Shown: positions 5,010-12,561 of the stretch, piece by piece
Position numbering within the stretch: the first letter of the stretch is position 1
Layout: every line of letters starts with the position of its first letter
Assembly (NCBI RefSeq): GCF_003790525.1
Contig: NZ_CP033635.1
DNA from: Escherichia coli
Lineage (GTDB): Bacteria; Pseudomonadota; Gammaproteobacteria; Enterobacterales; Enterobacteriaceae
Reading direction: 5' to 3' (one strand)
DNA length: 64,000 nucleotides
The notes under the pieces: generated by a model
Seen by the model: only the letters and a program-made list of their open reading frames with translations
Told to the model about the DNA's origin: nothing
Databases searched by the model: none
Position numbers and translations under genes: made by a program

Positions 5010-7475
<2,466 letters not shown>

Positions 7476-7488
7476 GTTCGCTAAAAAA

Positions 7489-7520
7489 CAGAACGGGGCC
7501 AAAAGGTCCCGTTTTTTTTC
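7489..7520 (+). terminator. rho-independent terminator downstream of glgP
   Basis: Imperfect GC-rich hairpin (acggggcc aaaa ggtcccgt) followed by T8 at 7512-7519. Confidence 0.6.
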
Positions 7521-7591
7521 GCCTTTATTTAGGAAAAGTGTCCAGAGGGGGCGAGGGTTATCGGGGAGTATAATTTCGCCATTCAGCAAGA

Positions 7592-9109
7592 ATGGAAAGA
7601 ATAATGCAAAACGGAAAATGGATTTTGACCTCGCTGGTAATGACTTTTTTTGGCATCCCCATACTGGCGCAATTTTTGGCAGCGGTTGTTGCCATGCTGG
7701 GGGCCGGGCTTGCCGCTATTTTTGATGTTTGCAATTTACTCTTTACGCCAACAATTTATCTTCTACTCAACGTCTTTATGCTGACGCTGGGCGCATTACT
7801 GCTATTTTTCTCTGGGCGAGTGTGGGCGGGCGATAGCGCACCAGAAAACAGAGAAATAGCCGCCTGGCGACAATGTCTTTTTTTAGTTCCCGCTTTATTA
7901 ACCCTGGTTGGCTGGATAATCACGCTACATCTGGCAGATTATCAATTTCGCCAGATGGTTTCAGGTTGGTTGGCAAACCTTATGCTTCCCTGGTTGGGCG
8001 TTTTTACAGTCTCATTCGTCGGTGGTGAGTACTGGTGGATAGTCATTATTCCCGTTGGCGCGCATATCAGTTTTTCACTGGGATACGGCTGGCCGACCAG
8101 ACACCCTTTAACCGGCACCTCCGGTCTACGTTGCCGTAATTTACTTCTGTTCATTCTTCTCTTACTGGGTATTGTCGCTGGTTATCAGGCTTATTTATAT
8201 AAACAGCTTAATCCCGGCGTCGGTGTGCGTGAAAATATTGATACCTGGGCCTGGCGACCCGATAAACTTAATAATCAACTGACGCCACTGCGTGGTAAAC
8301 CACAAATTCAATTTACGCAAAACTGGCCGCGACTCGATGGCGCTACGGCGGCGTACCCCATTTATGCCTCTGCATTTTATGCATTAAGTGTAATACCAGA
8401 GGATTTTCACGTTTGGGATTATCTGGATAACTCTCGTACGCAAGAAGCATATAACAAAATCGTTAAGGGCGATGCTGATATTATTTTCGTGGCGCAACCT
8501 TCCGATGGGCAAAAAAAACGCGCTGAGAAATCGGGCGTCACTTTGCTGTACACGCCATTTGCCCGTGAAGCGTTTGTTTTCATCGTCAATGCGGATAATC
8601 CGGTTAATTCCCTGACTGAACAACAAGTGCGTGACATTTTTAGTGGCGCAATTACCAACTGGCGCACGGTTGGCGGTAACGATCAGGAGATCCAGACCTG
8701 GCAACGCCCGGAAGACTCTGGCAGCCAGACAGTGATGCAATCGCAGGTCATGAAAAATGTCCGCATGATCTCGCCGCAGGAAACCGAAGTGGCAAGCATG
8801 ATGGAGGGAATGATTAAAGTCGTTGCCGAATACCGTAATACAAACAACGCAATAGGCTACACCTTCCGCTATTACGCAACACAAATGAATGCCGATAAAA
8901 ATATAAAACTGCTAGCGATTAACGGTATTGCACCGACTGCGGAAAATATTCGTAACGGCAAATATCCGTATATCATCGATGCCTTTATGGTAACGCGGGA
9001 AAATACTACGTCAGAAACACAAAAACTGGTCGAATGGTTTTTAACGCCGCAGGGACAGAGTCTGGTGGAAGATGTGGGCTATGTGCCGCTGTATCCAACA
9101 ATGAAATAA
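7592..9109 (+). CDS. membrane-anchored PstS-like (phosphate-binding-protein fold) protein: N-terminal polytopic TM domain plus C-terminal PBP domain
   Basis: 505-aa ORF (a second ATG at 7604 has a better-spaced GGAAAG RBS). Residues 1-210 carry about 5-6 hydrophobic helices; the C-terminal 270 aa show PstS-like motifs (AAYPIYASAFY, RPEDSGSQTVM, AIGYTFRYYA) that align with E. coli PstS (FPAPVYAKWA, DGSGTSFVFTSY, AIGYVEYAYA). Possible -10 TATAAT at 7568-7573. Confidence 0.7.
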   Translation: MERIMQNGKWILTSLVMTFFGIPILAQFLAAVVAMLGAGLAAIFDVCNLLFTPTIYLLLNVFMLTLGALLLFFSGRVWAGDSAPENREIAAWRQCLFLVPALLTLVGWIITLHLADYQFRQMVSGWLANLMLPWLGVFTVSFVGGEYWWIVIIPVGAHISFSLGYGWPTRHPLTGTSGLRCRNLLLFILLLLGIVAGYQAYLYKQLNPGVGVRENIDTWAWRPDKLNNQLTPLRGKPQIQFTQNWPRLDGATAAYPIYASAFYALSVIPEDFHVWDYLDNSRTQEAYNKIVKGDADIIFVAQPSDGQKKRAEKSGVTLLYTPFAREAFVFIVNADNPVNSLTEQQVRDIFSGAITNWRTVGGNDQEIQTWQRPEDSGSQTVMQSQVMKNVRMISPQETEVASMMEGMIKVVAEYRNTNNAIGYTFRYYATQMNADKNIKLLAINGIAPTAENIRNGKYPYIIDAFMVTRENTTSETQKLVEWFLTPQGQSLVEDVGYVPLYPTMK

Positions 9110-9134
9110 CGCTCGAGAGAAAGGAATCAGCGCA

Positions 9135-10127
9135 ATGAATAAATTCACCGGTGTTTTACTATTAGGTACGGCGCTACTGGCGGGATGTGTCGACCGGGAA
9201 GGGTACTATAACAGCGTCAGGGAAGAAGACAGCCATGGACTGACGTCTCTGCGGGGGCAACCTGAATTACGTTACAACGATGATTGGTCAAGATGGCCGA
9301 GAGTGTACGGCGCTACAGCCTTATACCCGCTGTATGCCTCCGCGTATTATGAATTAGTACCCGAGCCAAAAGATAAGGATCGAACCTCGCTGGCCTGGCA
9401 GGCGTATGGTTTGCAACAAACCCGAACAGCTGAAGCCTACGATAGTCTGATTAAGGGTACCGCGACGGTTATTTTTGTTGCACAACCGTCGGAAGGACAG
9501 AAAAAACGTGCAGAAGAAGCAGGTGTTAAACTCAAATATACCGCTTTCGCCCGCGAAGCCTTTGTCTTTATCGTTGATATCAAAAACCCGGTTAATTCAC
9601 TTAGCGAACAGCAGGTCAAAGACATTTTTAGCGGTAAAGTGAGTCGCTGGAATAAAGTGGGCGGCGGTGACGAAAGTATAAAAGTCTGGCAGCGGCCAGA
9701 AGATTCTGGAAGCCAAACGGTTATGAAGGGACTGGTTATGCAAGATACTCCAATGCTGCCAGCCAAAAAATCCACTGTTATCGATCTTATGGGCGGTTTA
9801 ATTACCGAAGTCGCCGACTACCAAAATACACCATCTTCTATTGGATACACCTTCCACTATTACGTCACACGTATGAATGACAATATGCTCAAAATGCGCA
9901 AACAGATCAAACTGCTGGCTATAAATGGCGTTGCACCTACAGAGGAAAATATCCGTAACGGCACTTATCCGTACATAATTCATGCTTATATGGTGACGCA
10001 CGAAAACCCTACGCTGGAAACGCAGAAATTCGTCGACTGGTTTTTAAGCCCGCAGGGACAGCAATTGGTAGAGGATGTGGGCTATGTGCCGATTTATGAC
10101 GCATCATCCGAATCATCAGGACAATAA
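9135..10127 (+). CDS. PstS-like substrate-binding lipoprotein, tandem paralog of the upstream gene
   Basis: 330-aa ORF; lipoprotein signal MNKFTGVLLLGTALLAGC (lipobox LAGC); mature part colinear with and clearly similar to the C-terminal domain of ORF 7592-9109 (ALYPLYASAYY, RPEDSGSQTVM, SIGYTFHYYV). Confidence 0.7.
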   Translation: MNKFTGVLLLGTALLAGCVDREGYYNSVREEDSHGLTSLRGQPELRYNDDWSRWPRVYGATALYPLYASAYYELVPEPKDKDRTSLAWQAYGLQQTRTAEAYDSLIKGTATVIFVAQPSEGQKKRAEEAGVKLKYTAFAREAFVFIVDIKNPVNSLSEQQVKDIFSGKVSRWNKVGGGDESIKVWQRPEDSGSQTVMKGLVMQDTPMLPAKKSTVIDLMGGLITEVADYQNTPSSIGYTFHYYVTRMNDNMLKMRKQIKLLAINGVAPTEENIRNGTYPYIIHAYMVTHENPTLETQKFVDWFLSPQGQQLVEDVGYVPIYDASSESSGQ

Positions 10128-10129
10128 AG

Positions 10130-10730
10130 ATGAATAAAATCAGACTTTATATTCCTCCGTTAATTCTTGGTTTTGTTATTGTGCCGTTGTTGGTGTGGCC
10201 GACGGTGGTTGCTCTGGCTGCTTGTGTTATCACGCTGAGTTTTATGGGAGAAATACTGTTCTCTATCCCGCTCATGTTCAGGCGTATTTCACTTCTGGAA
10301 TTCCAACTTGGGTTATTGGCTGAATATGCACTTTTTTTTTCTGTGCCATGTGTTGCGTTGGTTGGCAATTTTCTTGCAGAGCTCAATCTGAACTGAAAAG
10401 CAGACTCCATTGTTGGTTGGTATTTGCACCAGTTTATTTCTGGTTGCTCCTGTGGAATATCATTTTCTATGTCGCGCCAGCGCAAATTGCTTTGCTGGAA
10501 AATATGCGCAATTTCTTTCTGACCATTGTCTGGTTACCCCTGAATTTTTTCAATTTGGGTCTCAGCCGTGGACTGACTTTATCGGTCCGATAAGCGCCCA
10601 GCTTGGTTTTGCATTGGGATATTATTGCCAGTGGCGTAGCAAAAATAGAAGTCAGAGGAAGAAGTGGGGCGAGTGGGTAATGTGTCTGAGTTTTGTTACG
10701 TTGGGTATGATTGCGTGGGCTTTGCGGTAA
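10130..10730 (+). pseudogene. small integral membrane protein gene split over three reading frames (likely frameshift-inactivated), translationally coupled to the upstream PstS-like gene
   Basis: Three overlapping hydrophobic ORFs in three different frames (10130-10396, 10348-10593, 10410-10730). A T9 homopolymer at 10332-10340 sits exactly where restoring one T would join frame 1 to frame 2; a second one-base shift is needed before 10593 (a T6 run lies at 10545-10550). ATG 10130 is 2 nt after the upstream stop. Confidence 0.45.
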
Positions 10731-10855
10731 TTCCTTGAATCAAAAAGTAGGTCAGATTGTTGACGAAGTGCGCTTTGTTTATGCCGGATGCTGCGTGAAC
10801 GCCTTATTTTGTCTACAAAATCATGCAAATTCAATATATTGCATAAACCACGTAG

Positions 10856-10880
10856 GCCTGATAAGCGTAGCGCATCAGGC
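10856..10880. repeat. REP (repetitive extragenic palindrome) element, followed by a T7 run
   Basis: gcctgataagcgtagcgcatcaggc is a typical enterobacterial REP palindrome; T-run at 10883-10889 could terminate plus-strand transcripts. Confidence 0.5.
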
Positions 10881-10897
10881 AGTTTTTTTGTTTATCA

Positions 10898-10921
10898 TCA
10901 GTCTCAGGTCAGATTGAAATC
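10898..10921 (-). terminator. perfect inverted repeat downstream of glpD (candidate glpD terminator hairpin)
   Basis: ggtcagat tgaa atctgacc, 24 nt beyond the glpD stop; no strong U-tract on the glpD strand, so function is uncertain. Confidence 0.35.
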
Positions 10922-10944
10922 TGACCTGGCCACCTTACGTTAAT

Positions 10945-12450
10945 TTACGACGCCAGCGACAACTTCTGCTGCGTATACTCCACCAGCCACTGACTCACAC
11001 GAGATTGTTGATCCGCATTTAGCCACATGCCTTGTTTTGTGCGACGCCACAGGGCATCGTCGGCGCGACGGACCCATTCGTGATCCACCAGGTATTTCAG
11101 TTCCGCTTCGTAGAACTCATGACCGAAATCCTCCCCGAGGTCGCTTATCGCCCCCGCATTGCCGAGCAGCAGTTCGCTGTTGCTGCCGTAAGTGCGCGCG
11201 TAGTGACGTGCCAGCGATTCAGTCAGGAACGGGTAACGGCGGCGCAGGCGAGCGGCATAATCGTCGCGATCGCCTTCAATGGCACCACCCGGCAGCACGC
11301 TCTCTTTCGTCCACGCCGGGCCAATACCCTGATAATACGGCGTTAGTTTTTCCAGCGCATGTTCCGCCAGTTTGCGGTAGGTGGTCAGCTTACCGCCGAA
11401 TACCGACAGCAGCGGTGCTTTGCCGTTTTCGTCATGGATATCAAGGGTGTAATCACGGGTAATTGCCTGCGGCGAGTCGGACTCATCATCACACAGCGGA
11501 CGCACGCCGGAGTAAGTCCAGACGATATCGTCACGGCTTAGCTGCTTTTTAAAGTGCGTGTTATACACTTTCAGCAGGTAATTGATTTCACTCTCTTCAA
11601 TCTTCACGGCTTTCGGATCACCTTTGTATTCCACATCGGTGGTGCCGATGATGGAAAACTCGTCCATCCACGGGATCACGAACACAATACGTTTATCTTC
11701 GTTTTGCAGAATGTAGGCTTGCTTCTGGGTATGCACGCGTGGCACCACAATATGGCTGCCTTTGATCAGGCGAATGCCATAAGGTGAAGGCAGATGCATC
11801 CCGTCGTCGAAAAATTGTTTCACCCACGGGCCGGTGGCGTTCACCAGGCCGCGCGCCTGCCAGGTGTATTTTTTGCCGGTATCGATATCTTCTGCTTCCA
11901 CAATCCACAGGCCGTTTTCGCGGCGAGCAGAAGTGGCACGAGTACGAGTAAGCACTTCACCGCCTTTACGTACCACCATCTGGGCGTTGGCGAGTACCAG
12001 ACGGGCGTCGTCTACCCAACAGTCAGAATATTCGAATCCGCGCTTAATTTCCGGTTTTAACACTGAGTTTGCGCCAAAACGCAAACCGGTTGATCCCGGC
12101 AGGCTGGTGCGTTTACCCAGATGATCGTACATAAACAGACCAATGCGAATCATCCACGCCGGGCGCAGATGCGGACGATGTGGCAGGCGAAAACGCATCG
12201 GGAAGGCGATATGCGGAGCCATTTTCAGCAACACTTCACGTTCAGCCAGCGCCTCGCTGACCAGGCGGAATTCATAGTGCTCAAGGTAGCGCAGGCCACC
12301 GTGAATGAGTTTTGAACTGGCGGAAGAGGTCGCGCAAGCGAGATCCTGCGCCTCCAGCATCAGCACGGATAAACCGCGTCCAGCGGCGTCTGCCGCGATA
12401 CCAGCACCATTGATGCCGCCACCTATCACAATCAGATCTTTGATTTCCAT
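10945..12450 (-). CDS. glpD: aerobic glycerol-3-phosphate dehydrogenase (501 aa)
   Basis: Track ORF extends to 12465; start trimmed to the Met of MEIKDLIVIGGGINGAGIAADAAGRG (FAD-binding GxGxxG). Confidence 0.95.
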   Translation of the reverse strand: MEIKDLIVIGGGINGAGIAADAAGRGLSVLMLEAQDLACATSSASSKLIHGGLRYLEHYEFRLVSEALAEREVLLKMAPHIAFPMRFRLPHRPHLRPAWMIRIGLFMYDHLGKRTSLPGSTGLRFGANSVLKPEIKRGFEYSDCWVDDARLVLANAQMVVRKGGEVLTRTRATSARRENGLWIVEAEDIDTGKKYTWQARGLVNATGPWVKQFFDDGMHLPSPYGIRLIKGSHIVVPRVHTQKQAYILQNEDKRIVFVIPWMDEFSIIGTTDVEYKGDPKAVKIEESEINYLLKVYNTHFKKQLSRDDIVWTYSGVRPLCDDESDSPQAITRDYTLDIHDENGKAPLLSVFGGKLTTYRKLAEHALEKLTPYYQGIGPAWTKESVLPGGAIEGDRDDYAARLRRRYPFLTESLARHYARTYGSNSELLLGNAGAISDLGEDFGHEFYEAELKYLVDHEWVRRADDALWRRTKQGMWLNADQQSRVSQWLVEYTQQKLSLAS

Positions 12451-12561
12451 GCTGCCCTCATTCACTTTCGTTAAAGTTCATAAATGTTCGTTATCGAACA
12501 TATTAGCAAAGAATCGCGCTTTGGGTAACATTGAAAAAACATTTTAGAGTGATATGTATAA

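Follow-up and report, generated by a model that had tools for sequence, protein, structure and literature searches.

What is encoded by a stretch of DNA in which three overlapping hydrophobic open reading frames (ORFs) occupy three different frames? Positions 10130–10730 of the window, the whole 64,000-nucleotide stretch of Escherichia coli DNA analyzed here, pose this question. A reading of the letters alone (hereafter the sequence-only reading) had proposed three answers, with no preference among them: a membrane-protein gene broken by homopolymer slippage, a phase-variable gene, or an intact gene hidden by a sequencing or assembly error. The segment 10100–10760 is 100% identical to the chromosome of E. 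coli SMS-3-5 (NC_010498.1), and the ORFs belong to a small islet composed as follows.

5028–7475 and 10945–12465: glgP and the oppositely oriented glpD, respectively, which flank an islet of three genes (ORF list and RefSeq).
7592–9109, plus strand: upstream gene 1, ~505 amino acids (aa), RefSeq start at 7601, with an N-terminal polytopic membrane domain of ~215 aa (hydropathy).
9135–10127, plus strand: upstream gene 2, an intact 330-aa lipoprotein (WP_001032210.1) with the lipobox LLAG|C and a PstS-like periplasmic binding domain.
10130–10730, plus strand: third islet gene, now a pseudogene, whose intact form codes for a polytopic membrane protein of 199 aa; RefSeq ECSMS35_RS27290 ("hypothetical protein, frameshifted").

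The RefSeq coordinates of the pseudogene are identical to those of the sequence-only reading, and its length is 601 bp compared with 600 bp for the intact allele. The translational coupling to gene 2 noted from the sequence was also borne out: the stop codon of gene 2 (TAA, 10125–10127) is followed by AG and then by the ATG at 10130, leaving a gap of 2 nt, and an AGGA lies 9 nt upstream of this ATG. All three ORFs are hydrophobic, and both T tracts lie exactly where they had been placed. The ORFs, the two lesions and the native-frame segments that the lesions separate are listed below.

10130–10396, plus strand: ORF 1, 88 aa, in a frame of its own.
10348–10593, plus strand: ORF 2, 81 aa, in a frame different from those of ORFs 1 and 3.
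10410–10730, plus strand: ORF 3, 106 aa, in a frame different from those of ORFs 1 and 2.
10130–10331, plus strand: native-frame segment 1 (residues 1–67), the sole part still translated from the coupled start.
10332–10340, plus strand: lesion 1, a T9 tract that is T7 in intact alleles (+2), at codons 68–71 (LFF) within the second hydrophobic helix.
10341–10544, plus strand: native-frame segment 2, in the frame of ORF 2, about residues 71–138 of the intact protein.
10545–10550, plus strand: lesion 2, a T6 tract that is T7 in intact alleles (−1), at codons 139–141 (NFF).
10551–10730, plus strand: native-frame segment 3, in the frame of ORF 3, about residues 141–199 of the intact protein and the stop.

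Translation from the native start runs off-frame past T9 and ends at the stop 10394–10396, giving an 88-aa product. Lesion 2 removes the most conserved motif of the family, GPISAQLGFALGYYCQW, together with the last helix. The T9 tract is the longest homopolymer in the window, and base composition alone leads one to expect such a tract (mean of 1.48 in shuffled sequence). Because the tract on its own is unremarkable in this respect, the case rests on comparison across genomes.

Intact alleles of the gene are present in other E. coli strains. In strain SCU-301 (99.4% nucleotide identity), the locus is a single 600-bp ORF of 199 aa (WP_022646217.1) with T7 at both tracts, and the intact O157:H7 and U15A alleles code for 200 aa (WP_000981061.1) and 201 aa (WP_001033839.1), respectively. 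These orthologues stand at 71–99% protein identity, and their lengths agree with the ~200 aa predicted for an intact form. A four-way alignment showed that SMS-3-5 and SCU-301 differ in length only at T9/T7 (+2) and T6/T7 (−1), in line with the proposed frame junction at T9 and a second one-base shift downstream. Resetting both tracts to T7 produced a 199-aa protein whose lone difference from that of SCU-301 is A84T. The two T-tract indels are the only lesions, which supports the first of the three proposed answers, a pseudogene formed by homopolymer slippage. The suggestion that one extra T would carry frame 1 into frame 2 is arithmetically sound, as T10 and T7 are equivalent modulo 3, but the natural intact state is T7/T7 and not T10. 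Alleles of the gene do not all preserve the T tract: in the alignment, O157-type alleles have interrupted tracts (TTTTCTT and TTTTTCG), and site 2 of U15A reads TTTTTCC.

These comparisons also bear on whether the three hydrophobic ORFs, of 81–106 aa, are genuinely separate small membrane-protein genes. Orthologues from E. coli, E. albertii, E. marmotae and a distant relative from a metagenome each form one collinear ORF, 184–201 aa in length, and the two-frame layout is absent from every orthologue examined. The gene is thus conserved in E. albertii, E. marmotae and the distant relative, which is 35% identical. Neither ORF 2 (ATG 10348) nor ORF 3 is preceded by a Shine-Dalgarno sequence. Among intact alleles, dN/dS was 0.18–0.27 in the single joined frame versus 0.8–1.2 in a control frame, indicating that the intact alleles are under purifying selection and form a real coding gene. 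We therefore give three separate genes a negligible probability.

The alleles are also far apart at synonymous sites. Synonymous divergence between SMS-type, O157-type and U15A-type alleles ranges from 0.31 to 0.77, with nucleotide identity down to about 79%. Judged from these sequences, such divergence is unusual for E. coli and is consistent either with allelic lineages of great age or with alleles brought in through recombination, the region being a known hotspot.

The frequency of each tract length was determined by exact-context megablast with 88–93-nt queries, for which the identity band of at least 99% corresponds to identical sequence. The database comprised 5,426 complete E. coli genomes, 306 of which carry the SMS-type allele family. 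At tract 1 (10332–10340), these 306 genomes include 156 with T9, 143 with T7, six with T8 and one with T10; at tract 2 (10545–10550), 163 have T6 and 143 have T7. No single-lesion intermediate was found in this census, and a synthetic T7/T6 query returned no perfect match, the best being the T8/T6 strain SC516 at 99.7%. From the matching totals and the absent T7/T6 match, we infer that the population splits into intact T7/T7 and broken Tn/T6 genomes.

Could a homopolymer error in the SMS-3-5 record mask an intact gene? Both lesions do lie in homopolymers, the classic sites of sequencing and assembly errors, and the gene has no further lesion. However, the identical T9 context (156 complete genomes) and T6 context (163) come from unrelated projects, hosts and countries, and the counts separate T7/T7 from Tn/T6 genomes with no mixed state between them. 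The T9/T6 genomes were obtained by many laboratories from humans, dogs, gulls, chickens, a pangolin, river water and wastewater. Independent records are annotated as frameshifted as well, and this applied to each inspected record with T9/T6, T8/T6 or T10/T6. The same lesions in ~160 independent genomes rule out a sequencing artifact, and the error proposed by the sequence-only reading has practically no chance of being the explanation.

All combinations with T6 encode truncated products, of 88 aa for T9/T6, 86 aa for T8/T6 and 154 aa for T10/T6. The T10/T6 state was verified in strain 23AR0303, the sole T10 genome, and it does not restore the full protein. We also considered T8/T6, with a net length change of 0, as a compensated allele and rejected it, since a stop in the intervening frame limits its product to 86 aa. 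Judged by the protein alleles of gene 2 and glpD, the six T8 genomes represent three or more flanking haplotypes, and at least two of these haplotypes also occur with T9. This distribution indicates that the lengthened run is slightly unstable or prone to assembly error, and in some of the seven T8/T10 genomes the tract length may be a homopolymer error of long-read assembly. T7 (143 exact matches per tract) and T6 (163) were both free of length variants. In the U15A-type family (2962 genomes), the exact T7 context was found 802 times and T8 0 times, and the sampled matches were all of T7 length. A recurrent T8 frameshift in this family, an idea that came from a 136-aa cluster (P0065), was accordingly discarded after 0 exact matches among the 2962 complete genomes.

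The census speaks equally to a slipped-strand phase-variable (contingency) gene, in which the T tract would toggle the protein ON and OFF within populations. A simple-sequence repeat, T9, is present inside the coding region, and runs of nine A or T have been described as hypermutable (PMC1088944). The tract does vary, with six T8 and one T10 among the 163 T6 genomes and T8 on several flanking backgrounds. Yet every one of the variants in the T6 lineage is truncated, so that all states are OFF; the T6 tract has no length variant; T7 is invariant at both tracts, and exact T8 is lacking from the 2962-genome sister family. The repeat is not conserved either, being interrupted in O157-type alleles. 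A lineage that varies without an ON state, and a gene that does not vary where it is ON, do not fit a contingency locus. Phase variation, which the sequence-only reading had offered as an option, is thus not supported, and we consider it extremely unlikely.

Expression might instead be rescued by recoding, with RNA polymerase slippage on T9 (U10 or U7 transcripts) or ribosomal frameshifting restoring the frame and permitting low-level expression. In many bacteria, RNA polymerase begins to slip efficiently once a run of T or A is nine long (PMC1088944). The T9 tract reaches this length, some U10 or U7 transcripts from it are plausible, and one additional U would bring segment 2 into frame with segment 1. 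However, the T6 tract, 205 nt downstream, is too short for efficient slippage, and the best product would be 154 aa long, lacking both the final helix and the conserved GPISAQLGFALGYY motif. Nor is the two-frame layout conserved, the orthologues being single ORFs with T7 or an interrupted tract. Functional rescue by slippage is unlikely, and recoding as an account of the locus is very unlikely.

Collectively, our results make it highly probable that 10130–10730 is a genuine, vertically inherited pseudogene broken by two homopolymer slippage indels. An intact collinear orthologue, indels that are not multiples of three, independent assemblies carrying them and selection on the ancestral gene, all features of a frameshifted pseudogene, are found together here. 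In the proposed course of events, the ancestor would have encoded a 199-aa, all-helical inner-membrane protein with 4–6 predicted transmembrane helices, as the last gene of an operon-like islet. In the SMS-3-5 lineage, replication slippage would then have turned its two T7 tracts into T9 (+2) and T6 (−1). A ribosome starting at the coupled ATG 10130 would now make 70 native residues, change frame in T9 and stop after 88 residues, and the downstream frame segments, which have no ribosome-binding site, should go untranslated. An N-terminal fragment of 88 aa could still be synthesized and may have a residual role. After the death of the gene, the T9 length would have drifted slightly, to T8 and T10 on several haplotypes, with no state that restores the protein.

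We then consider the islet to which the pseudogene belongs. Gene 1 carries a C-terminal PBP_like_2 domain at residues 249–485 (Pfam PF12849, 5e-31), and gene 2 scores 122.5 bits against TIGR02136, under the cut-off of 206.6. No ABC ATPase is encoded among the three genes between glgP and glpD. PADLOC returned 0 defense-model matches for all islet proteins, and a promoter and terminator scan of 7400–11000 gave counts not above those in shuffled sequence.

Several elements were noted in the intergenic sequences. The REP-like region between the pseudogene and glpD contains an Rfam match to the ES036 (CssrF) sRNA at 10817–10859 on the plus strand, above the gathering score (43.6 bits, E 9e-7). Just past the glpD stop, at 10905–10928, lies a perfect 11-nt inverted repeat, CAGGTCAGATT / AATCTGACCTG, with a 2-nt loop; a third copy of its arm is found at 10749–10758, right behind the pseudogene stop. 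These arms may be terminator or REP-type elements. A T8 run at 7512–7519 lies between glgP and gene 1, about 75–90 nt upstream of the gene 1 start.

The islet differs between strains, and the glgP–glpD region has been described as structurally variable, as 'hotspot A' (PMC13185298). The middle gene is swappable: SMS- and O157-type islets carry the PstS-like lipoprotein (9135–10127 here), and U15A-type E. coli and the distant metagenomic relative carry an unrelated protein of 255–278 aa (L004:3261-4028; L008:121-957) that has no match in Pfam, NCBIfam or PADLOC. The last ~10 codons (YDASSESSG) are common to both sides of the swap junction. On the contig of the distant relative, a PstS-like C-terminus is followed by a 278-aa protein, 49% identical to the U15A middle gene, and then by the membrane protein. 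Since the same arrangement recurs outside E. coli in a relative of only 35% identity, the membrane gene belongs with the islet, in agreement with the single unit of genes proposed from the sequence. The further proposal that it is a partner of PstS-like proteins holds in part: the gene is a member of the islet, but its immediate upstream neighbor is interchangeable, and for the majority of E. coli as well as the distant relative it is the unrelated 255–278-aa protein. In K-12, yzgL corresponds to the first 74 codons of gene 1 (L009:1616-1837 in K-12 ER2796; ~7601–7820 of the window), and everything else in the islet has been lost by deletion, the membrane-protein gene with it.

Gene 1 shows variation of its own. 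It contains an A8 run at 8511–8518, and some database proteins, such as P0145 (26 members), match gene 1 as far as 'QPSDGQK' and continue beyond A8 in the frame of the spurious ORF 8472–8615 ('NALRNRASLCC...'). This switch of frame means that A8 is frameshifted in other strains, and homopolymer breakage seems to be recurrent across the islet. Between SCU-301 and SMS-3-5, ~30 dense SNPs at 7791–7963 are confined to part of the gene 1 membrane domain, where strain 4069 matches SMS-3-5; a second SNP block, at 8941–9055, is specific to strain 4069. The pattern of the two blocks suggests small recombination patches in the islet.

The intact membrane protein was further characterized by prediction and homology searches. 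As the sequence-only reading supposed, it has the character of a membrane protein, being hydrophobic and predicted all-helical with about 4–6 membrane-spanning segments. Its most conserved motif across the family is GP(I/L)SAQ(L/S)GFALGYY. Querying Pfam gave no match at E 0.001 or better, NCBIfam gave none near a cut-off, and a profile search of the PDB identified no relative. A profile search of 1.84 billion representatives yielded only 43 matches, nearly all of them fragments of the same Escherichia gene. Outside Escherichia (E. coli, E. albertii and E. marmotae), the only homolog is one 35%-identical metagenome protein, P0107; for this sole true distant relative, no relatives of its own were found. 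AlphaFold2 run on the 10-sequence alignment gave a model that is unusable (pLDDT 51, pTM 0.37).

A possible relative lies within the islet itself. BLASTP aligned the 199-aa protein with the membrane domain of gene 1 at 23% identity over 185 residues (E 0.65), and a comparison of profile to single sequence improved this to E 7.7e-4. Profile–profile alignment with hhalign (domain at 7592–8240) gave a probability of 73% and E 3e-5 over 158 collinear columns, a moderate score from profiles built on shallow alignments (Neff about 1.7). The two share a GxxxxFxLGY motif, and the gene 1 membrane domain matches no Pfam family. The 199-aa protein is therefore a probable free-standing paralogue of that domain. 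By its sequence and gene context, the intact protein would probably be an inner-membrane subunit that works alongside the islet's periplasmic binding proteins. Because it has no similarity to permeases and no ATPase gene lies nearby, we infer that it is not an ABC permease. Our search of the literature on yzgL and on glgP/glpD/PstS turned up a 2026 paper naming the region a structural hotspot but no study of function.

Loss of the gene has been repeated, and it might be adaptive instead of neutral decay. The losses in question are the double frameshift in ~160 genomes, truncated forms in other allele backgrounds and the islet deletion in K-12; the swapping of middle-gene cassettes and the deep allelic divergence point in the same direction. 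On this reading, which we regard as very unlikely, the islet would be an uncharacterized, Escherichia-restricted envelope module made up of a membrane-tethered orphan PstS-like binder and a small membrane subunit paralogous to part of it. Antagonistic or diversifying selection would act on the module, for instance if phages or colicins target it.

For annotators, the frameshift flag on the SMS-3-5 gene is correct: it needs neither "repair" as a sequencing error nor listing as phase-variable. The T9/T6 allele provides a clean marker of a lineage represented by about 160 complete genomes, and an example of a homopolymer that grows and destabilizes after selection on the gene is lost. The intact protein represents an uncharacterized, nearly Escherichia-only family tied to orphan, membrane-tethered PstS-like proteins in a known hotspot. 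The significance of the pseudogene itself is small, as it is ordinary and already annotated.

Simple-sequence contingency loci, such as those of Neisseria, Haemophilus and Campylobacter, undergo phase variation through homopolymers. The SMS-3-5 gene resembles them in that slippage has altered the length of a homopolymer within the coding sequence and so moved the frame. It differs from them in that its lineage has no ON state and carries a second, fixed lesion, and in that the tract of the intact gene is short and stable (T7) and not conserved across alleles.

Genes that use transcriptional slippage at 9A or 9T runs include those of IS elements and Thermus dnaX (PMC1088944). Similar to these, the SMS-3-5 gene has nine sense-strand T at a frame junction. 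Its T9, however, is a recent lineage-specific expansion that is not conserved, and the second frameshift blocks a full-length product.

Both upstream islet genes share PstS-like (PBP_like_2 / TIGR02136-like) binding domains with the PstS/PstCAB transporter. In contrast to that system, the islet scores under the family cut-off and contains neither a permease nor an ATPase, its membrane protein resembles neither PstA nor PstC, and gene 1 joins the binding domain to a polytopic membrane domain of its own.

The closest counterparts are at the locus itself. RefSeq ECSMS35_RS27290, with the same coordinates, and its intact orthologues represent the same locus, and no difference was found; the pseudogene call is thus already in RefSeq, and what is new here is the exact lesions, their population frequencies and the exclusion of both a sequencing error and an ON/OFF switch. 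The yzgL pseudogene of K-12 is the same islet decaying at the glgP–glpD junction. K-12 lost the membrane gene by deletion, whereas SMS-3-5 keeps all three genes, the third lost by two point indels.
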